A stretch of 63,615 bases of DNA, filler included, from Reclinomonas americana ATCC 50394 (GCA_048213135.1; 4 parts of 3 records of this genome joined end to end with filler, not necessarily neighbours in it), one strand, 5' to 3'. Positions 35,811-57,461 are shown, counted from the whole stretch's first letter. Translations and numbers: made by a program. Notes: a model not told the origin generated them from the letters alone.

Positions 35811-36779
35811 GGAGTATAAGTATAGGAGATAGTGTGCAAGGCTTCCCGCTTGTGAAGAAAGACGGATGGAAATGCCTGTGTCCTGCGTGTGTGGAATTGC
35901 AAGTTCGCGGACAACAGGTTGTGAAGCAAGCGCAGCTGTGAAACGGTGTGGGTATATAGCAGGAGTAGCGGGCTAGACTAGTAGGCGAGCAGAACCGCGC
36001 GCGGGCGTGGGTATGGGGCGACGATGTATTTTTGACATTACACAAGCGGAACAGGTTGTTTTTGAACAAGGAGCAGCTGAGAAACGGCAAGGCCTCGCAA
36101 CAAGAAGTGGGGACTGTTGGTGCATGCGAACTGAACCGCGCGCGGGCATGGGTATGGGGCGACGATGTACACAAGCTGCCACAAGGAAAACAGGTTGTTT
36201 TGGAAGCAGGTGCAGCTGTGAAACGGTGTGGGTGAGCCCATAGAGAAGGGTGCAAGTCGAGAATGCGAACGCAACCGCGGGCTTGGTCTCTGAGAGTGTG
36301 GTGCGACGTCATATATATGTATTTTGACTTTACACAAGAAAAATCAGCACAACAATATGGAAGCCGCTGCAGCTGTAAAACGGTGTGGGTTTGCAACAAG
36401 AGGTGGTAACATGCATGTCGAGCATGCAAAGAGAACTGCGCATGCATGCGCGTGGACTTCAATGTGGTGTTGAGTTAGATGTTTTCGAAACTGCGGTGTT
36501 TGGAAGACAACAGATTGCTTTCAAAGTTTCTGCAGCCGTGAACTGGTGAGGGGCTGCAATGAGCGAGAGCACAAGTCGAGTATGCAGCCAGAACTCGGCT
36601 TGGCATTGCCCGTCACAAGATCCGATCGACAAGCAACGGTGCGTCGACAACAGCAACAAGAACACGATGTTCAGCAACAAACCAGCACCAGCAGCTATCT
36701 TGACCACGATTGACGGTCGTTGCCTGTCTCTCTTCTCGTCGACATCTCCCTGGACTGTGACCATCACTCCGCCGACACT

Positions 36780-39700
36780 TCACTCATCCCTCTCCTCCCG
36801 CTGGAACAGCAGCGTCAACATCGCGCCCGACAAGCGCAGCTTCAGCAAGCAGTCGCAGATCAGGTACAGCACCACCTGCACACAATCAACAGTCAGCATC
36901 CCCCACACCTTCTCCTCTCCTCTCCCCTTCTCCCCCTCACAAACCTCGGTGGAAAAATCGACCACTCGCCACCCCTCGTGCCCGAGCATCCACACCACGC
37001 CAAATGCGTTGCACAGCACGGCAAAGTGCACAAAGAGCGACCACGACGAGGGACGCAGCATGCGGTACACCAGATACAGCGTCACGCTGAGTGCGCCAAA
37101 ACTCATGGCCAGCCATCCGACCTTGAGGCTCATCGTCGGGGCGATCTGTGCACGCAAGAGTGAATGGCGAGTGTGACTCACACAAGTCCACTCTCTCTCT
37201 CTCTCTATCGTACCTCTCCCAGGTAGCCCAGATACGCCATCGTCCACGCGGACACGGTGCCGAGGGCCACCGCACGCATCTGTCACACGTGTTGGAAAAA
37301 GGAGTCGCACATTTGCCTGCTTCTTCTTCTCCTTCCTCTTTCCTTGTTCTCATTCGTCTCTTCATTCTCGCTCCTCTTCGAGGAGGTGGACAAGATGAAG
37401 AAGAAGAAAAAAGAAGGAGGAGAGAAGCAAGAAGAGGAACAAGAAAGTTGACGAGCAGGAGGAGGAGAACAACAAGAGGAACTAGAACGAGGAGAGGAAG
37501 TAGAGTGAGAACAAGGAAAGACGACAAGGAGGAGAAGAAGAAGTAATAAAAGAAGAAGAGAAGCAAGATCCTCCTTCCCCTTNNNNNNNNNNNNNNNNNN
37601 NNAAGTAATAAAAGAAGAAGAGAAGCAAGATCCTCCCTCCGCCTCTCCACTTTCTACTCCACTTCCTACACTTCATCCTTCTTGCTTCTCTTTTTCATCT
37701 TTTACTTCTTCTTCAACTTGTCCCCTTCTCCTTCTATTCCCCCTGTTCCCATTCTTCTTCCTCTCTTCCTTCTCATCCTCTTCCTAATCTTCATCTTTCT
37801 TGCTTCTCTCCTTCTTCTTTTACTTCTTCTTCATCTTGTCCCTCTTCTTCCCTGACCCGGTTCTACTTGGTTCTCTTTACTTCTTTCACTTCTTCATCAT
37901 CTTGTCCACCTCCTCCTCCTTCTCTTCCCCCTTCGTCCGTGTCCCCCATCTTCTGCCTCTCCTCTTTCTAGTCCTCTTTCTTGTTCCCCTTCTTGCATCT
38001 CCGCCTCCTCTTTCTCCTCCTATTTCTTATTCCTCTCCTTGCTTCTCCTCCTTTTCTTGCACCCCTCCTTCTCCCCCACTTCCTCTTCATCCCCCATCCG
38101 CACCTTGTCACCCCTGCTCGCCACCACCTCCGTGGTCAGCGCAAACGCGGTGAGAATACAGGGAAACGCCGTCGAGTACTCGACGTAGCGCGCCACCGAG
38201 TGCGGAAACGCATTCATGTACACGGAGAGGTAGCAAATGGCGGCGGCGGCGCACATGCCCGACAGGCACAGACAGGCCTGCAAGAAGGAGGTGAGTGAGA
38301 TGGTGATGATCGCTCTCTTGTCACTCTGACACCTACGGAAAGGCAACTTCTCATCTTCTTCTCAGCGAAGCGAGAAAAGAGAGACATTGACAGAAAGCGA
38401 GAGCCAGAGAAAGACTCAAAAGAGGTGAGAGGAACTGGCACATATTGCCTGTCTCCCTTGTGCAGCAGCGCGACAACAAAGCCCTCACTCCACCCACTAA
38501 TCATAATTTCTGCATTGCTTCCCAGCCCTTCGCTCTCGCCAGCAGTGCTTCATGGCTCCCCGTTTTCATTCCCTCTCTTGCATTCTCAAACAACATGGCT
38601 TCCCAGTCCTGTGCTCTCGCCAGCAGTGTCTCATGGCTCCCTTTCATTCCCTCTCTCTGTCCTTTGCTCCCAGTCTCTCTTACATTCTCGAACAGCACGG
38701 CTTCCCAGCCCTTCGCTCTTGCCAGCAGTGTTTCATCGCTCCCCGTTCTCATTCCCTCTCTTGCATTCTCAAACAGCACGGCTACTCAGCCCTTTGCTCT
38801 CGCCAGCAGTGTTTCACGGCTCCCTCTCATTCCCCCTCTCTCTCTCAGTCCTCTGCTTCCAGTCTCTCTTGCATTCTGAAACAGCATGGCTTCCCAGCCC
38901 TTCGCTCTCGCCAGCAGTGTTTCACGGCTCCCTCTCATTCCCCCTCTCTCTCTCAGTCCTCTGCTTCCAGTCTCTCTTGCATTCTCAAACAGCATGGCTT
39001 CCCAGTCTCTCTTGCATTCTCAAACAGCACGGCTTCCCAGCCGTTCGCTCTCGCCAGCAGCTTTTCATGGCTCCCTCTCATTCCCTCTCTCATTCCCTCT
39101 CTCAGTCCTCTGCTCCCAGTCTCTCTTGCATTCTCGAACAACATGGCTTCCCAGCTGCAGCCCTTTGCTCTCGCCAGCAGTGTTTCATGGCTCCCCGTTC
39201 TCATTCCCTCTCTTGCATTCTCGAACAGCATGGCTTCCCAGCTCATCGCTCTCAGTGTTTCATGGCTCCCCGTTCTCATTCCCTCTCCCTGTTCTCTGCC
39301 CCCAATCTCTCTTGCATTCTCAAACAGCACGGCTTCCCAGCCCTTTGCTCTCGCCAGTTACCTCTTTCCAGTCTCACTGTCTCTCTGACTCCAGAAGCTT
39401 GAAACAGCAATCTCACCTTTCTTCTTGTTTTCAGCACCAACGAACCCCTTTGATCTCGCTCTCTCCTCTTCACCCTCATTCTCGTACAACACGAAGTCTT
39501 TCACTGCTCCTGTCTCCCACTCTCTCTCTCTCTCTCTCTCCCCAACGTCTTATCCAATGCAATCACTCTCCCCCTTTCCCCTTTCCCCCTCTCCCCNNNN
39601 NNNNNNNNNNNNNNNNNNNNNNNNNNNNNNNNNNNNNNNNNNNNNNNNNNNNNNNNNNNNNNNNNNCTCCCTTCCCCTTTCCCCTTCCCTCCCTCCCCCC

Positions 39701-39930: not shown

Positions 39931-40180
39931 GTTGCTGTGTGTGTGTGTGTGTGTGTGCGTGAGTAAGAGAGAGAGAGAAGATTCGATGGATGTTCGGATT
40001 GATTGGTTCATTCACATATTCGAAGTGGAGGGAGAGAGGGAGAGGGGAGAGAGAGTGGGTGGAGAGTGAACGTTAGTGCACAGTCAGTACAAGACTCGCC
40101 AGCGGCAGTGACACAAGCGCAAGCGCGCAACTAATAACCTATTGAGAGGTCACGTTTCATGTATATCCATGCGGATGGCG

Positions 40181-40285
<105 letters not shown>

Positions 40286-40689
40286 NNNNNNNNNNNNNNN
40301 NNNNNTGAATGAATTGTTGTTGTTGTACTCCAAGACCCGTCCTCTCTCTTACGCACATGCACATTCTAACTCCCTCTCACTCTCTCTCTCTCTCTCTTCC
40401 TCTCTCTCTTCCTCTCTCTCTTCCTCTCTCTCACTCGCCAATCAAAATTGCAAGCAAGACTTCAACCTTCATCGCTCTTGCTTTGCAATTGTCCCCTTCT
40501 CTCATCCGGAGCCTCTGGATCCACACAACAATCCGCCGATTCGATGACAGTGTTCGCGTCCACAGGTGCCCACAGACAAACACACAAGCCACACAACTTG
40601 AACACCAGCTGCAGTTGCAAGAAATTTCGAACTTACCGTTCTGAACATACCGTTTGTTTTCTTTTGTTTCACTCGAGAGAACACACAAC

Positions 40690-43600
40690 ATGAGCAAAGC
40701 GGAAACGCACGCACGTGAGGGGATCAGCGCCGCTCAAAGGGAGAGGCTCGAAAGAGCATTCATGGAGAACCCGCACCCCGACAAGTGAGTGAGAGCGGGT
40801 AGCTATAGTGCGCATGCTGCGCGCGCGCAGCGTGTGACGTGCACTCTCGCGATCGATCTCGTTGCTCATCTTCCCTGGCGCCGGCTTACAGGGAGGTGTT
40901 GCAACAACTTGCTAACGAGTTGGGGCGCTCCCTCAAGTCGACAACGCTTTGGTTCACGACTCGACGCAAACGGTGATCATGAGATCACCCTTGATGCATT
41001 TTTTTGAAGATTGGTCACTGACGGCACGTGGATCCGCCAGCGGACCACGAAAGGAGGGTGCCCACGACTGGTTCGACGCCGAGCAAAAGAAATGCCTCGA
41101 GCTTTCTTATGCGAAGAATCGTTATCCCACGCGGTGTGTGTGACCGTTGCATGTCCTGCTGTCCTTCCTTCTGACGCTCGTCCCGCTGCAGTGACGAAGT
41201 GCAGAAGTTGGTTGACGAAGTGGGGCGCTCAGAGAAAACTATTCGCACATGGTTCAGCTCTCAACGTTTCCGGTGAGTTGCTCGTCTCTCTCGCTTCACG
41301 ACTTTCAAATATTGCTCACGATATCGGTTCGACATGTCGACAGTGACGGTTGCACGCGTGCCCGCGTGCCCTTTTCCGACGAAGAAATTAAACGATTGGA
41401 GGAGGCGTACCAGCAAAGCGAGTCCGTGCTGAGCGCGTGAGTGTCTGTTCGTGTACATGTTCAATTAGTGTCACTCTCGTTGTTAATAATTACGATTGTA
41501 TCTGGATGTAGGACTCTAAGGAAGGAGCTGAGTGACGAACTGGGTCGCACCGAGCATTCTGTCGGCTCCTGGTACAAGAACAAACGCAAATTGGAACGGT
41601 ACGCTTACATCTCGTTGCCTCTCTTGATCTTCTGCACTGTTGATTTCATCAATGACTATTCAATAGTGCCGGATCCGGAGTAGCTTCATCAGCGGCGTCA
41701 GCGTCGGCGCCGGCGAGCGAGTCGCGTCTTTGGTTGCCGTACTCCGACGAGGAGAAAGAGCGCTTGGAGCGAGTGTTCATCGACAATGACCGCCTTCTCC
41801 CACCCAGGCATGTTCGACAAGTCGCTCTTCCAGCTGTTTTGTGCCACCCTTTTCCACTGACTTCTTTTGTAGTGATGTTCTGCAGAAGCTAGCGGCTGAG
41901 TATAAGCGTACACCGCGTGCCATCCAAAACTGGTACAAACGATTTAGCCGGTGAGTGGACGTCCGTTGCCTTCCTGCTCAGCTTACTGCTTACTAACTCT
42001 GATATCAATTTATAGTGAACAAGCGCTAGCAGCCGCACCATCAGCGCCGCAGTGTGTCTCCGGAAAGTTCACCGCCGACGAAATTGCATTATTGGAAAGG
42101 GTTTTCGTGCGATATCGCCAGTACCCGACAAGGTGACTAATACTGGCCTGCGCCATGGCCAGTCATTCGCGTACCGGTACCAATCCATGCACTGATGCCC
42201 ATCTTTGTTCGAACACAGGCCAGTTGTGCATAGTTTGGCTACGCGGTTTCGACGCACCGTAAGCAGTCTAAAACAATGGTTTACTCGCCGCCGTCACCGG
42301 TATGTAGACGTCTGTACATGTCTCTCATGCACGTGCTTTTTTTGAGCCATGTATGTGTCTGCAGTGCTGCAGCAGGACTTCGATGTCGAACTACAAGCCA
42401 ACGTCAATCGCAACGAAAGCTGCTGCAGCAGGCACTCGTAGACAATCCGAATCCGAACAGGCTTGTACTTTGCTGTACCCGCATTTTATTGTGCATCTTT
42501 TACTCAGCTCACATTTCGGACTCTGCAGGAAAACGGTGCAAAAACTGTCTCAGAAACTGACTGCCGTACCGAGCGAAGTTGAGCGCTGGCTTAAAAAAAA
42601 ATCGGGGTGCCGAACGGTTTGTCTATTGGTTGCGAAATGGCGTGGCTGCTGATTGATCACTGACCGATTGAATTTGAGCAGTGCATGTGATGGGGACGGA
42701 TCGGGATCGGGATCGGGATCGGGAACAGCAGCTGAAGCGCCGTTGGTGTCCGCACGAGCGGCTGAAGCGCCAGCGAAGGAAGCACCAGCAAAGGTACCGG
42801 TGACGAAGAAGCCGTATTCGACATCCGAGCTGGAACAATTGGAGGAGGTGTTTCGTGTTTCCAAGAATCCAAGCGGGTCTGTATGTTTCCTCGATATTCT
42901 CTTAATGCAATCTGCGCTCATCGTCGGCTACGAACACAGCGAGGTGCGGGAGCAATTGGCGAAAAGCATGGATCGGACAAGGCGCGCCATCGACACGTGG
43001 TATGTTCGCAGACGCAAACGGTTTGTCTGGTTATTCGTTTTTTGTCTTTGCTGCTGATTGGTATTGATCACTGATTGCACACGTTGGGCAGTGATCGCGA
43101 CGGACCTGCGCTTGCGCCAGCTGCAGGTGCCCGCAAACTGGTAGGTATACCGTTCACCGAGAGTGAAAAGGAGCAGCTCGAAAAAGTGTTCGTGCACAAC
43201 CCCATGCCAAATAGGTACAGTAATACTGGTTGTCCGCTTACTGTTTCTTATATTTGTACTAATGTCCGGCAACAGTGATGTCCAGCTGCAGCTGGCTCGC
43301 GATATGGAGCGGCCTGTGGATGCGATTAATGGCTGGTTCCTGCGCAGGCGTCTGCGTGATCGGTACTGCTCGTCTCCCTCGCTGTGCTGCTGCTGATTTA
43401 TCACTGATTTCGATTACAGTTTGAATGGTGATGGTGCTGATGGCGCTGGTCCAGCGAACGAGGCGGGTCACAGGAGGCGGCTTACCGAACCGGAAAAGGA
43501 ACGACTTGGAGAGGTGTTCGCCGTCAACCAGTATCCCGACTTGTGCGTCAGCTGTTTGCATTCTTGTTTGTTTTCGTGTCGTCCTCCGTGCTCACGATAA

Positions 43601-44641
43601 TTTCCACTCTTAACTTTACACAGCACGGTCCTAAGGCAACTGGCTGCCGAGTTGGGCCTGCCAGCCAGCCGTCTCCAAAACTGGTTCAAAAAGCGCCGGA
43701 CGTTGCATCTGTGCCGATGCGGAGAATCTCTGCATCCACTATACGGATACCCTGCCTCGCCGAGACGCCGCGAATGCTGTTCCGCGTGCAAATTGCCCGG
43801 CATGGAATATTTGGGTCCCAGTCCATGCCAGTGTCGGAGCGCACGTGCCGATTACGGCAATCTTGGCCAAGATCCCACTTGTTGCATCCAATGCCGGAAG
43901 CGGAGGATGGTACTGCTTCGCCACCCGTATTGCGAGTCCGAGCATCACACTCCAGGGCCTGTATTTCACACACTCGTCCAGAAGTGGGGAGACAGTTGTG
44001 GCGTTTGCAAGGCCTGGGGGACTGGATTTGTGCCGCCGTCCTACGGATCTAAAGAGACTGTAGTCGTGCAGTATCTGCACGAACAGGGCTTTGAGTGGAA
44101 ATCGTGGAACCAGCTTGTGCAAGGCAACGTTTGCTACCGGTATCGCCCCGACCTCTATTTTGAGCTGGAGAACGGCACTGGATGCATTGTCGAGGTTCGG
44201 TGGTAGCGCATCAGAACTGCCCGCGTACGGCGTACAGTTGCTCATAACCTTTGTGCATGCCGAACACAGGTCGATGAGTTCGAACACGACTACACGCACA
44301 ACCCTCTGAAGGCCGGCGCCTATGAACCTGCTTGCGAGGCCTCTCGCATGCTGAACATTTGGTTCACGCTCGGCTGCGCCCCACTTTCTTTTATCAGATT
44401 CAACCCAGATGGGTGCACGCCGGCCGAATACCAAGAGCGTCTGCAGTCACTGGCCGACGTTTTGCGGCACACTCTGGAGAATCAACAGATTGCGGACGAC
44501 GCCGAGGACGACATTGCGAACAGGATTTCGGTTCGAGTCGTTTATATCGGCTACACAGCCGGGCGGGAGCGGGAGTGCGTGGCAGCAGTGGAGGAGGCGC
44601 GACAGATGGCCGATGATCAGCTTTTCGGCGGACGACAGTGA
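40690..44641 (+). CDS. Nine-homeodomain protein fused to EsV-1-7-like Cys-rich repeats and a PD-(D/E)XK/Vsr-like endonuclease (19 exons)
   Basis: Nine units of F/Y-x-x-E-x-x-x-LE-x-x-F...P | ...LA...WF/WY-x-x-RR joined by phase-2 introns. These run into CRCGESLHPLYGYP..CCSACKLPGM and then RYRPDLYFEL..IVE|VDEFEH..CEASRM..FIRFNPD. Stop at 44639-44641. Confidence 0.8.
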
Positions 44642-44827
44642 GTGTCGCCGCGGTATTTCCCCCGCCACGGCCGGCGTCAGTGGCTGGCACATGTACAGAC
44701 AATGATGCGAAGTGAACAATCTGCGTTTGAGTTAACCCAAGTTTCGGATTGCCCTCCCGCAAGGCAAACCAGCAACAACGATTTCATTGCGAGCTGAGGT
44801 GCAAAGACCCAGGAATCTTCTCTTTCT

Positions 44828-44907
<80 letters not shown>

Positions 44908-46340
44908 NNNNNNNNNNNNNNNNNNNNNNNNNNNNNNNNNNNNNNNNNNNNNNNNNNNNNNNNNNNNNNNNNNNNNNNNNNNNNNNNNNNNNNNNNNNNN
45001 NNNNNNNNNNNNNNNNNNNNNNNNNNNNNNNNNNNNNNNNNNNNNNNNNNNNNNNNNNNNNNNNNNNNNNNNNNNNNNNNNNNNNNNNNNNNNNNNNNNN
45101 NNNNNNNNNNNNNNNNNNNNNNNNNNNNNNNNNNNNNNNNNNNNNNNNNNNNNNNNNNNNNNNNNNNNNNNNNNNNNNNNNNNNNNNNNNNNNNNNNNNN
45201 NNNNNNNNNNNNNNNNNNNNNNNNNNNNNNNNNNNNNNNNNNNNNNNNNNNNNNNNNNNNNNNNNNNNNNNNNNNNNNNNNNNNNNNNNNNNNNNNNNNN
45301 NNNNNNNNNNNNNNNNNNNNNNNNNNNNNNNNNNNNNNNNNNNNNNNNNNNNNNNNNNNNNNNNNNNNNNNNNNNNNNNNNNNNNNNNNNNNNNNNNNNN
45401 NNNNNNNNNNNNNNNNNNNNNNNNNNNNNNNNNNNNNNNNNNNNNNNNNNNNNNNNNNNNNNNNNNNNNNNNNNNNNNNNNNNNNNNNNNNNNNNNNNNN
45501 NNNNNNNNNNNNNNNNNNNNNNNNNNNNNNNNNNNNNNNNNNNNNNNNNNNNNNNNNNNNNNNNNNNNNNNNNNNNTCTCTCTCTCTCTCTCTCTGCTCT
45601 CTTCTCTCTACTCTCTCTCTCGTCTCCTACTTTCGTCGTCTACTTCTTATTTCTTCTTCTTCTTCTCTCTCTCTCTCTTCTCTCTTCTCTCTCTCGCTCC
45701 CATTTTGCGTCACTTCTTTTTCTTTCTTTCTTTAAGTCTCTCTCTCCCTCCCGGGCCCCATCTCTCGAGATGTTGCATTTTTGTTCGCTATCGGTCATGC
45801 AGGACAACTCTAATGTGCGTCGCATGACATGGTACCATGGTGGCGAAGCGGACTGTGACACAAGCACTTGATCACTCTATCACTCTTCGCATTGCTGGAT
45901 GATTGCGCACATCTCTTGTTGTTGTCTCAGCTGATCTGATCAATGCGACACGATTGCGAAATCCATTTGAGGCCAACACGCGCGCGTACGCGTTTGATTG
46001 GCTTTGTCTTCTGAAAGGGAAAGATGACTGTTGGAGAAGATTTCATCTATTGTTGGTGTGCCAAGGTCATTGTCGGCAAGGGATCTGTGGACGATTGTCG
46101 CATTACTGTAATGTGGTGAATAAAGTGTTTTGTTCGTTTGAAATTACCTTCCTCTCGCCCCCCTCCCTGTCATCGCTCCTTCAAAATGCATGTGTTCATT
46201 TGCAACAACGAGCCAACCCAACATGCTCGGTTCCAGTCGAGGGAGGCGAGTTCACAAAGACAGCAAAAGGGGAGGCAAAACGCGTGAAAAAGGGGGAAAA
46301 GATGAAATTGGCCAAGAGAGGACCAGGAGGTGGCGAGGGC

Positions 46341-51910: not shown

Positions 51911-52933
51911 TCATTCCTCGTCTCCCAATCCACCCATCAGATTCGCCATACTCCTCGTCGTCACCTCTCTCCTTGACCGCGTGGATCGAGTGCCACCGGC
52001 CAAGGGCATGACGACATCGGCACTCATGGCAGACGCCATGGACGGCTCTTCTTCCTCTGCCTCCTCCTCCTCCTCCTCCTCGTCCTCTTCATCCCGGTTC
52101 CTCGCACCACGGCGTTTCCGTCGCGGACTGTCCACCCGCATCCGTGACACGGCTCCTCCGACCTCGACCGCCCCGCCGTCCTCGCCATCGCGCCCGGGAC
52201 TCTCGTCGGGCACCAGGGCGCGAGAGGCCACTGCCGCCACGTCCTTCACGGAGCGAATGAGCTGTCGGGTGACCAGCGACTGCAGCACACGCTGTGCCGT
52301 TGCCGTCAGTTGTGAAGGCGCCGACGCAGTGGCCGAGGCGTTGAGGCCGAGCTGCTCGGCCCACGACTTGGTGCGGTGCACCAGTTGTGCCAGTGCATGC
52401 CGACACGTCGGCACGTACTCCAGGAAACAGAATCCCTCGCACGAGAAGCACGAGAGTGCACGCACCAACTCGAGTGCCTCGTGAACCGCCCGGCATCGCG
52501 ATGCATGCAACGACGATCGCATGTACACCTCCAGTTCGGCCGACGACATGCGCTGCAGCACCCCGTCGACTGCCTCCTCCTGCTGGTACGCGAAATCGAC
52601 CAGACGGACCACCAGCTGTTCGCACAGCGAAGGGCCGCGATTCGAACCACCGCCAGCCCCACCTGCAGCCGCCCCAGCAGCAGCAATCGCGGCGGCGGCG
52701 GCGGGATTACCACCGCCATTGGTCGTGGCTGTTTGTCGAATCATGGGTGATCGCTGTNNNNNNNNNNNNNNNNNNNNAGGCGCTCAATCGTGTCGCTCTG
52801 CGCCAACAGTGTGGCAAAGAGGCCGATCAGTTCGCGCCGCAAGCGAACCGTGTGCAGTTCGGCGTCGGGGAGCTTCAAGGCAGGCAGGTCCGGGTACGCA
52901 GTGATTGGTCGCAGGTCGGCGATGAGAATGGCC
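51911..52933 (-). CDS. 3' part of a hypothetical protein
   Basis: A 277-codon GC-rich ORF (51911-52744) plus an upstream exon AILIADLRP... No family recognised. Confidence 0.5.
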
Positions 52934-55544: not shown

Positions 55545-56502
55545 TCACCAGATGTAGCCCTGCAGAGAGGAGTGAGGAACGGTGACTGTAAAGCGGCAAA
55601 CTCCTCTATATGAACTCACCAGTCCATCCCAGAAATCGCAATAGCTGCTTCGCAGGTGCTGCGCAACCGCCGGCTGCGGCAAATCAAACACCAGCGTCGA
55701 CTGCGTGCTGTCGTCCCACTGCGGCCACACGGGGGTGCCTGGTGCGCGTCCGGCATTCGGCGATCCGCCACGCACAAACGCCGTCCAGTAGGCCGCCATT
55801 TGGTGTGACAGGCGCGAATCGTCCGGCGGGAAGATCAGCGGCGTCGGCACGGCTCCCCACGCACTGTTGAACACGTACGGCAATTCGCCACCGTGGCACG
55901 GGTACCCGTAGCAGAACGCGTAGTCAGGACCCCACGCCTCCGTGCCCCACGGCAGCGAGCGAGAAAAGTAGTAGCGGTAGGCGCCGGCGGGGAAGTAGCG
56001 TGCGGCGGCGCGGTTCGGGCACTCGAACAAAAAGTCAGTGCCGAGATCCGACATCGGCACGCGTGCGTCGGACTCGCTCTCCGTCACCGGGTACTGCGCG
56101 TACACCTTCAGGGCGGAGAGGTGGAACAAGCCGCCGAGCGCTGCCTCGTACTCCCACTTGGCGAGGGGTTTGGTCACCGCGGCGAAGATGAAGGTGCGGC
56201 CCTGCAGGGAGGAGAAGGGGGTAGTTGAGGGAAAGGGACGATAGAAATCGAGAGAGAAAGAGAGATATAGTAAACACAGGGAGAGGACAAACCTCTGAAG
56301 CATTGTTGCCGACAAGCACTGGAATAGTCGGCGCGCCAGCGCACTTGCCATTCATGACCAGCGTGATGGGGTTGTCGCTCAGCTCGGCAGTGGCAATCAG
56401 CGGGCTCCACGCGTACACCGCTGCGTACACCATTATCAGCACCAGGAAATGCATCCAAGATCGAAAGACAGATCGAAAGATAGAGAGAAAGAGAGAGAGT
56501 GT

Positions 56503-56563
<61 letters not shown>

Positions 56564-56703
56564 GACGACGACGACGACGACGACGACGTACGTACGACGA
56601 CGACGACGCGCGCGCGTACGTACGTACGTACGTACGTACGTACGTACGGTACGGACGACGACGACGACGTAGTACGTACGACGNNNNNNNNNNNNNNNNN
56701 NNN

Positions 56704-56772
<69 letters not shown>

Positions 56773-57355
56773 CGCAACACAGCAGTGGCGACACAATGTG
56801 AATGTCGTTGAACTTGAGCTGTGCGGCGAGGATTTCATCGGCAGACTTGCCGCGCAGGCACGCCGTCATGTCGGACGCATCGTCGCAGCCGGCTTTCTGC
56901 ACTCAGCAACACGAAGGGATGAGTATTCAGGGTACATGGGTGCGGTATGGTGAGCAACGCAACGCCGGCAAAGCTCTTGCCCTCCGACACGGCCTGCGTC
57001 ATGGTCTTCATTGGCAGGCTCCACGGATTCGACTCCATGATGGCGCGGTGGAAGAGGCCCTGTGAGACGGGCGAGCAGAGGTGCGCGCTCACCGAGGTGG
57101 CGCCGGCCGATTCGCCCGACAGGGTTACCTGGCAGAGATTGAGAAGGGCGAGTCTTTGCGCAATCATGAAATGCATATATGGGAGGATACCTGGTTCGGA
57201 TCGCCGCCAAACGCCGCAATGTTGCGCTGCACCCACTGCAGTGCCTGCAGCTGGTCGTAGAAGCCGTACTGGCCGCCAAGTTGCTCAGTGGCTGTGGTGT
57301 GGGAGGGTGAGGGAGAGGGAGGGAGGGCGGAAGGGAGAGAGAGAGAGAGAGTGAA

Positions 57356-57398
<43 letters not shown>

Positions 57399-57418
57399 NN
57401 NNNNNNNNNNNNNNNNNN

Positions 57419-57461
<43 letters not shown>

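Follow-up and report, generated by a model that had tools for sequence, protein, structure and literature searches.

A predicted intron-rich gene of Reclinomonas americana that joins nine atypical homeodomains to a Vsr-like nuclease domain of giant-virus type

Arrays of small DNA-binding repeats coupled to a Vsr-like nuclease are already known from giant viruses and, in another form, from the EDxHD homing endonucleases. The EsV-1-7 endonucleases of giant viruses and metagenomes (the relatives P0001, P0006 and P0020, and Marseillevirus LCMAC102 and Brazilian cedratvirus in the viral structure library BFVD) carry Cys repeats directly before the nuclease. Here we describe a predicted gene with the same C-terminal module in a stretch of DNA of 63,615 nucleotides (nt) from Reclinomonas americana ATCC 50394 (GCA_048213135.1; four parts of three records joined with filler), which as a whole is called the window. 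The gene lies at 40690..44641 on the + strand and would encode a single protein in which nine homeodomain-type repeats precede two EsV-1-7-type Cys repeats and a Vsr-like nuclease domain.

The viral EsV-1-7 endonucleases have up to eight or nine Cys-repeat stretches (as counted with Pfam) and no homeodomain, whereas the protein of the window has two Cys repeats and nine homeodomains; the P0020 gene is uninterrupted, whereas that of the window has 18 introns, one of them inside the nuclease domain. Vsr (1cw0 and 1vsr; Z 7.0-8.6) and NGO0050 (3hrl; Z 7.8) belong to the same fold class as our model of the P0001 domain, and Vsr has a comparable order of conserved Asp, acidic, His and Asp residues but differs in being a stand-alone mismatch-specific nickase. 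Animal multi-homeodomain regulators (ZHX, ZFHX/ZFH-2 and DUX4) have several homeodomains per chain, as in the window protein, and these homeodomains are generally known to keep Asn51. ZHX proteins have 4-5 homeodomains (PMC7144352), the only explicit count for such a protein met in the literature searched, in comparison to nine in the window protein, eight of them without Asn51, and ZFH-2 combines zinc fingers with homeodomains, each in many copies (PMC13078641). EsV-1-7 proteins are reported to be missing from animals and from land plants and to have expanded in brown algae (10.1101/2024.02.19.579948), and intronised, domesticated viral genes of brown algae have been discussed (PMC12993054). 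I-Bth0305I, the EDxHD prototype (PDB 3r3p; PMC3239194), is the best structural match to the modelled P0001 domain (Z 8.6-8.9, root-mean-square deviation (rmsd) 2.9-3.2, 94-95 residues aligned) and is described as likewise bipartite, with modular DNA-binding motifs (NUMOD/helix-turn-helix) N-terminal to a Vsr-like catalytic domain (PMC3239194); it differs in being small and encoded by a phage group I intron, with 14-18% identity and neither homeodomain nor Cys repeats. Engineered nucleases, namely a Ubx homeodomain-FokI chimera (cited in PMC2685105), zinc-finger nucleases (ZFNs) and TALENs (based on transcription activator-like effectors), follow the same principle of a sequence-reading module with a separate cleavage domain. 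These are artificial proteins that rely on the FokI domain and cleave as dimers, whereas the domain in the window protein is Vsr-like and predicted.

The preliminary description of this locus knew of no report of such a fusion, and none was found either among the 23 relatives identified here or in the literature searched, where we looked for a homeodomain fused to a Vsr, DUF559 or EsV-1-7 nuclease and where none of the multi-homeodomain regulators is reported with a nuclease domain; the supplementary tables of the brown-alga EsV-1-7 survey might list other architectures.

It was found that the 19 exons of the proposed gene join into 2673 nt, consisting of 890 codons and a TGA stop (44639-44641), with no internal stop, which confirmed the splice-consistent open reading frame (ORF) put forward for this region. 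The whole gene lies within one stretch free of N (40306-44907); the assembly is a draft, with 25 N-runs over the length of the window. The exon borders were anchored by hand, and an automatic exon chaining (23 exons) was rejected because it over-split the gene. The features are given below; bit scores are from the leave-one-out comparison of the repeats, and E values are those of single half-domains against the Pfam homeodomain profile PF00046.

40690..40972, + strand: homeodomain repeat 1, exons 1-2 (40690-40784, 40892-40972); helix 3 WFTTRR; first half E 0.0033; 58.1 bits
41041..41272, + strand: homeodomain repeat 2, exons 3-4 (41041-41133, 41192-41272); helix 3 WFSSQR; halves E 0.1 and 0.048; 39.1 bits
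41344..41598, + strand: homeodomain repeat 3, exons 5-6 (41344-41436, 41512-41598); helix 3 WYKNKR; halves E 0.0094 and 0.0012; 42.7 bits
41667..41950, + strand: homeodomain repeat 4, exons 7-8 (41667-41807, 41873-41950); exon 7 followed by a GC donor; loop longer by two residues; 54.9 bits
42016..42299, + strand: homeodomain repeat 5, exons 9-10 (42016-42132, 42219-42299); 45.4 bits
42365..42606, + strand: homeodomain repeat 6, the weakest, exons 11-12 (42365-42460, 42529-42606); helix 3 WLKKKS; GC donor after exon 11; 24.9 bits
42682..43020, + strand: linker and homeodomain repeat 7, exons 13-14 (42682-42876, 42940-43020); 50.5 bits
43092..43362, + strand: homeodomain repeat 8, exons 15-16 (43092-43214, 43276-43362); first half E 0.17; 59.0 bits
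43420..43705, + strand: homeodomain repeat 9, exon 17 (43420-43542) and the start of exon 18 (43624-44194); halves E 0.062 and 0.00057; 50.3 bits
43709..43915, + strand: pair of EsV-1-7-type Cys repeats (residues 607-640 and 645-675), sharing an exon with helices 2-3 of repeat 9
43925..44194, + strand: N-terminal half of the Vsr-like nuclease domain together with a Cys/His knuckle; motifs KE, GN.C and RPD
44195..44269, + strand: intron 18, 75 nt, GT-AG, phase 0, inside the nuclease domain; in-frame stop if retained
44270..44641, + strand: C-terminal half of the nuclease domain and stop, exon 19; VDE..H, CE..RM, R.NPD and YIGY motifs

The 18 introns are 57-107 nt long and look spliceosomal. All 18 acceptors are AG, and the donors are GT in 16 introns and GC in two (after exons 7 and 11), with a weak GTGCCG donor after exon 12; introns 1-17 are in phase 2 and intron 18 is in phase 0. 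A CTRAY branch-like motif stands 10-45 nt upstream of the acceptor in nine of the 18 introns, and the exons are 56.7% GC compared to 48.1% for the introns. Ten antisense or off-frame ORFs that overlap the gene gave no Pfam match. Intron 13 (42877-42939, 63 nt) is open in frame, and its retention would add 21 residues to the loop of homeodomain 7 with the frame intact.

The point at which the two parts meet lies inside one exon. The frame from 43601 to 44206 is stop-free and covers helices 2-3 of repeat 9, both Cys repeats, the Cys/His knuckle and half of the C-terminal domain (the first), with about three residues between the end of helix 3 of repeat 9 and the first Cys. Exon 18 passes from repeat 9 into the Cys repeats without a stop, and therefore any mRNA with repeat 9 must read into the nuclease module. 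The preliminary description had repeat 9 run within a single exon into the entire C-terminal module; this held for the Cys repeats and half of the nuclease domain, which share exon 18, and the 75-nt intron at 44195-44269 splits the remainder of the domain from them. A real fused gene is very probable, and we infer that it is transcribed as one mRNA.

The nine recognition-helix peptides quoted in the preliminary description (TTLWFTTRRKR, IRTWFSSQRFR, VGSWYKNKRKL, IQNWYKRFSR, LKQWFTRRRHR, VERWLKKK, IDTWYVRRRKR, INGWFLRRRLR and LQNWFKKRRT) were all located on the + strand at the places given for them. When each spliced repeat was compared with a hidden Markov model (HMM) of the other eight, the scores were 24.9-59.0 bits, whereas the best of 2000 shuffles per repeat was at most 12.5; judged by their sequences, the nine repeats are homologous to one another. 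Every repeat is split at a common point by a phase-2 intron before helix 2. Because of this split, only half-domains are visible to tools that are given the unspliced sequence of the window. In a Pfam search with single half-exons, nine of 18 gave sub-threshold PF00046 matches (E 5.7e-4 to 0.17), the first halves always at profile positions 2-26 and the second halves always at 29-53. The ORF of repeat 7 with intron 13 read through scored 24.2 bits against PF00046, above the curated cut-off of 22.9.

The first halves of all nine repeats were also combined into one profile and the second halves into another, and each profile was compared with the sequences of the PDB. The second-half profile gave 128 matches at E<=1, of which the best 60 were all homeodomains, headed by engrailed and DUX4 (1.6e-8 to 3e-7). 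The first-half profile gave 41 matches, of which the top 17 were homeodomains (HESX1, the best at 6.4e-4, PHOX2B and PAX3 among them), and unrelated proteins appeared only below these. Both profiles thus matched PDB homeodomains at corresponding positions, and these matches, with the PF00046 match of repeat 7, bear out the claim that the repeats are of homeodomain type. A low-confidence structure model of repeat 7 with the intron read through, made from the single sequence, had a mean predicted local distance difference test (pLDDT) score of 65.3 and a predicted template modelling score (pTM) of 0.38, and the intron-coded stretch was helical. Pairwise identity among the nine repeats is 10-42% (mean 21%), and therefore the array appears to be old and not recently duplicated.

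Trp48, Phe49, Asn51 and Arg53 are canonical DNA-contact and core residues of homeodomains, Asn51 being the near-invariant adenine contact. The array departs from this helix-3 signature as a whole: Trp48 is present in all nine repeats and Phe or Tyr at position 49 in eight, whereas in the order of repeats 1-9 position 50 is T, S, K, K, T, K, V, L and K, and position 51 is T, S, N, R, R, K, R, R and K. Positions 47 and 54 likewise vary freely among the repeats. By manual count, repeats 3, 4 and 5 have one or two additional residues in the loop between helix 1 and helix 2, and the spacing from one Trp48 to the next is 58, 58, 76, 65, 59, 91, 68 and 70 residues. On these residues, 'atypical homeodomains' is the most fitting name for the repeats. 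Nine consecutive A stand at 42592-42600, inside the sequence for helix 3 of repeat 6 and just before the GTGCCG donor, and an error of one base in the length of this run in the draft assembly would alter the reading of the end of exon 12.

The C-terminal module was placed in a family by searches with its separate exons and with profiles. When 1.84 billion representatives were searched exhaustively with exon 19, HMMER gave six matches at E<=1e-3. In five of these (P0001, P0002, P0003, P0005 and P0006) the same C-terminal domain comes after Cys repeats; the sixth, P0004, was rejected as a leucine-rich-repeat false match. A profile search among longer proteins gave 18 further matches, 17 of which contain PF19114. 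A homeodomain was found in none of these 23 relatives (five from the exon-19 search and 18 from the profile search). An HMM of the family (21 relatives, with the window rows excluded) matched residues 608-878 of the spliced protein with 136.8 bits (E 4.8e-44 with Z=1), unbroken across the junction of exons 18 and 19, the joining of which rebuilds the most conserved motif of the family without a gap. All 16 near-invariant family columns (two Cys, RPD, EVDE, H, E..R and R.NPD) are kept in the window copy, and the motifs RPD, EVDE..H, CE..RM, R.NPD and YIGY directly follow the Cys repeats. Exon 18 matched PF19114 (EsV_1_7_cys) over one stretch with 24.9 bits (E 1.8e-5), just below the cut-off of 25.0, and both Cys repeats aligned to the repeat region of the family HMM, which favours the EsV-1-7-type repeats that had been proposed here.

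Pfam has no model for the catalytic domain of this family. Exon 19 alone had no Pfam match, and among the 23 family members Pfam found DUF559 in one (E 0.002) and Hjc in two. The nuclease-family profile gave no match to PDB sequences at E<=10. The closest clusters in the ESM Atlas were giant-virus EsV-1-7 proteins, with a score of 0.81, below the level at which it would be more than a lead. The relative P0020 is encoded by a single uninterrupted ORF of 515 codons on a metagenome contig of tightly packed long ORFs. On the same contig (noted at 42-842 and 4525-6072) there is a second EsV-1-7-repeat ORF, besides a DUF6919 ORF and a pair of very long ORFs that carry SprB-type repeats, all of them uninterrupted and tightly packed.

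To assess the fold, we modelled this domain in the closest relative, P0001, using AlphaFold2 with an alignment of 23 rows, which gave a pLDDT of 85.9 (above 90 in the core) and a pTM of 0.80. In a structure search independent of Foldseek, this model matched Vsr (1cw0) with Z 8.6 and rmsd 3.1 over 108 residues and I-Bth0305I (3r3p) with Z 8.6 and rmsd 3.2 over 95 of 98 residues, followed by the DUF559 protein NGO0050 (3hrl, Z 7.8) and by RAP-type modules (a RAP-containing mitoribosomal protein, Z 7.5, and FASTKD4, Z 7.0); lower matches were Hjc resolvases, restriction enzymes, Can2 and VRR-NUC. A second structure comparison gave Z 8.9 for 3r3p, 7.1 for 1cw0 and 7.0 for 1vsr. The case for the fold rests on the top matches being of one subfamily and nearly the whole list of one fold class. 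In BFVD there were 29 matches at E<=1e-3, and all 21 of the named ones were from giant viruses (marseilleviruses, cedratvirus, pithoviruses, klosneuviruses, and the Aureococcus, Heterosigma and Tetraselmis viruses), many of them labelled endonuclease, DUF559 or C2H2. The model is consistent with a Vsr-like restriction-endonuclease fold for the C-terminal domain, and the assignment to a Vsr-like endonuclease type common in giant viruses was upheld by the P0001 model and the BFVD matches.

The catalytic residues of Vsr (D51, H64, H69, D97 and E25) and their counterparts in I-Bth0305I are listed in PMC3239194, and the spacing in the window protein (Asp, 13 residues, an acidic residue, His, about 30 residues, Asp) parallels that of Vsr D51/H64/H69/D97 as given there. 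By order and spacing, the candidate catalytic residues Asp753, Glu767/Asp769, His773, Asp814 and Glu721 are likely to be the Vsr equivalents; Asp753, His773, Asp814 and Glu721 are conserved in the family. These conserved residues predict nuclease activity, and the chances that the domain is an active DNA nuclease are, in our judgement, about even.

The gene looks like a host gene and not like part of an integrated virus. Among 115 long ORF pieces from the rest of the window, Pfam found WD40, EF-hand and RING finger domains and three carboxylesterase pieces, all pointing to cellular genes as neighbours, and one spurious conotoxin match, and an integrated giant-virus island was rejected in the absence of any viral hallmark among these pieces. 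The two parts differ little in GC content, which is 56.5% for the homeodomains and 57.1% for the nuclease. With an intron inside its domain and a host-like composition, the nuclease module appears host-like. No terminal repeats were found around the gene, only GA/CT microsatellites, and there was no sign of a homing endonuclease carried by a self-splicing intron, an intein or another mobile unit; no Rfam family was found in the window. A second copy of the homeodomain or nuclease domain was not found within the window either, and weak tblastn matches at 36540-36755 (E 0.62) and 52441-52629 (E 0.12) were inspected and judged to be due to chance.

We propose the following explanation. A nuclear gene of an intron-rich eukaryote would encode a single 890-residue chimeric protein, the N-terminal 600 residues of which would be nine divergent atypical homeodomains. 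These probably arose by repeated tandem duplication of a two-exon unit, because the same phase-2 intron lies before helix 2 in every repeat and the introns between repeats are also in phase 2. The C-terminal 285 residues would be a module acquired from giant viruses, with two EsV-1-7 zinc-type repeats and a Vsr/EDxHD-like endonuclease domain. The homeodomain array and the Cys repeats would hold the protein on a long composite DNA site, and the Vsr-like centre would then nick or cut nearby DNA in a Mg-dependent manner. That this is a host gene in which the atypical array and the zinc-type repeats position a catalytically competent Vsr-like endonuclease on DNA is, as a whole, evenly balanced in our estimation. 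DNA binding by the homeodomain repeats is predicted; site selection by them is conceivable, at somewhat less than an even chance.

The TALEN/ZFN-like reading in the preliminary description stands as far as the domain calls and the physical fusion in one stop-free exon are concerned; that the array of DNA readers aims the nuclease would be a further step, and Asn51 is absent from eight of the nine repeats. We regard the locus as a real and unusual fusion gene and infer targeted DNA cleavage. In a stronger form, the protein would be a natural designer-like nuclease of several modules, in which the nine homeodomains, diversified at the base-contacting positions 47, 50, 51 and 54, and the two zinc repeats read a very long composite site and bring a Vsr-type nick or cut of giant-virus origin to one or a few targets in the genome or in viruses, the viral selfish nuclease having been tamed for programmed cleavage (for instance mating-type or developmental rearrangement) or for restriction of the DNA of infecting giant viruses. 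The HO endonuclease of yeast would be a precedent for a tamed selfish nuclease in programmed cleavage. We consider this stronger form unlikely.

A number of observations weigh against the proposed explanation. In the array, Asn51 is found in repeat 3 only, and therefore a canonical TAAT-type reading cannot be assumed; Arg53 is found in seven of the nine repeats, and helix 3 of repeat 6 is truncated. There is no linker at three junctions (spacing 58-59; within repeats 1-3 and between repeats 5 and 6), and neighbouring repeats without a linker may be unable to occupy DNA together. In the Pfam search, repeats 4, 5 and 6 had no PF00046 match for either half alone; by the leave-one-out HMM they are nonetheless homologous to the other repeats. 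Of the Pfam families named in the preliminary description, the homeodomain (PF00046, in repeat 7) and EsV_1_7_cys (PF19114, just below its cut-off) were matched, whereas the DUF559 and Vsr profiles had no match to the window pieces at E<=1. The modelled relative P0001 is only 36-40% identical to the window pieces over the domain and 49% over the matched part of exon 19, structural Z scores of 7-9 are middling on the tool's own scale, and Foldseek with the P0001 model gave no PDB match at E<=1e-3, the top rows being cap-snatching and restriction endonucleases. The gene model requires GC donors at two splice junctions, and the codon frequencies of the two halves correlate at 0.34, their amino-acid compositions being different. 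No orthologue or paralogue with the homeodomain-nuclease architecture was found among the relatives or in the contig collections searched: searches for longer relatives with exon 18 and the repeat-7 ORF found none, which is weak evidence, and there were no matches to exon 19 in the viral contig collection or to exon 18 in the metagenome contigs.

The alternative that survives best is that the protein is a multi-homeodomain chromatin or transcription factor, in which the viral nuclease-fold domain no longer cuts and serves DNA binding, dimerisation or protein docking. Known multi-homeodomain proteins are regulators (ZHX, with 4-5 homeodomains; PMC7144352), EsV-1-7 proteins such as IMM act in development (10.1101/2024.02.19.579948), and domains of the restriction fold are often repurposed, as in the RAP and FASTKD4 modules among the fold matches (Z 7.0-7.5). 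However, all near-invariant acidic and His residues of the family are kept, which would not be expected after loss of catalysis, and we regard a regulator as an unlikely outcome.

It is also possible, and in our view quite improbable, that an endonuclease gene of a giant virus was inserted into the final exon of a gene for a homeodomain array and gave a young, unexpressed or decaying chimera, its frame being open because the event is recent. The gene is a single instance with no relative of the same architecture, and the state of repeat 6 and the two non-GT donors would fit decay. In contrast, the frame is open for 890 codons over 19 exons, an intron has arisen inside the viral-type domain and its removal restores the conserved motif exactly, and the composition is host-like with no other viral genes nearby.

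The single-gene model itself might be wrong, either because an internal promoter gives a nuclease-only product while the array is separate or ends early or because the contig is chimeric. Met codons are present internally, upstream of the nuclease domain, and could start such a product; the assembly is a draft with its 25 N-runs, and the GC donors are uncertain. The stop-free passage from repeat 9 to the Cys repeats in exon 18 and the location of the entire gene in the gap-free 40306-44907 make this very unlikely. Lastly, a C-terminal domain that acts on RNA in the manner of RAP-domain proteins is highly improbable, because although the RAP-containing mitoribosomal protein (Z 7.5) and FASTKD4 (Z 7.0) are among the best fold matches, the proteins closest in sequence and structure come from giant viruses, where they bear the label endonuclease or DUF559, or are enzymes that act on DNA (I-Bth0305I and Vsr), and the domains fused to the nuclease here are of DNA-binding types.

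Should the proposed homeodomain-nuclease protein be produced and active, no earlier natural enzyme is known to us in which a homeodomain array aims a nuclease, and the locus would stand as a clear example of a giant-virus endonuclease module that a host has tamed and intronised. It would raise the question of how back-to-back homeodomains without Asn51 read DNA, and of whether a small Vsr-like domain can serve as a cleavage module, a use in engineering that was suggested by the authors of the I-Bth0305I work (PMC3239194). It would also give experimental access to the large family of giant-virus endonucleases with EsV-1-7 repeats.

Other features of the window were noted around and beyond the gene. 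GA/CT microsatellites at 40165-40440 and 44816-44907 bracket the gene and adjoin scaffold gaps at 40286-40305 and 44908-45576, and the upstream GA and CT runs together make up an imperfect inverted repeat of 98 nt. A minisatellite-like array (38512-39357) lies about 1.3 kb upstream of the gene, with units of about 80-150 nt, comprising the families D2 (nine copies of 82 nt, spaced 81-114 nt) and D5 (five copies of 150 nt). On the - strand at 55548-58210, three ORF pieces match PF00135 (carboxylesterase) successively, at profile positions 55-120, 184-238 and 362-515, and represent a split cellular gene broken by introns and scaffold gaps.

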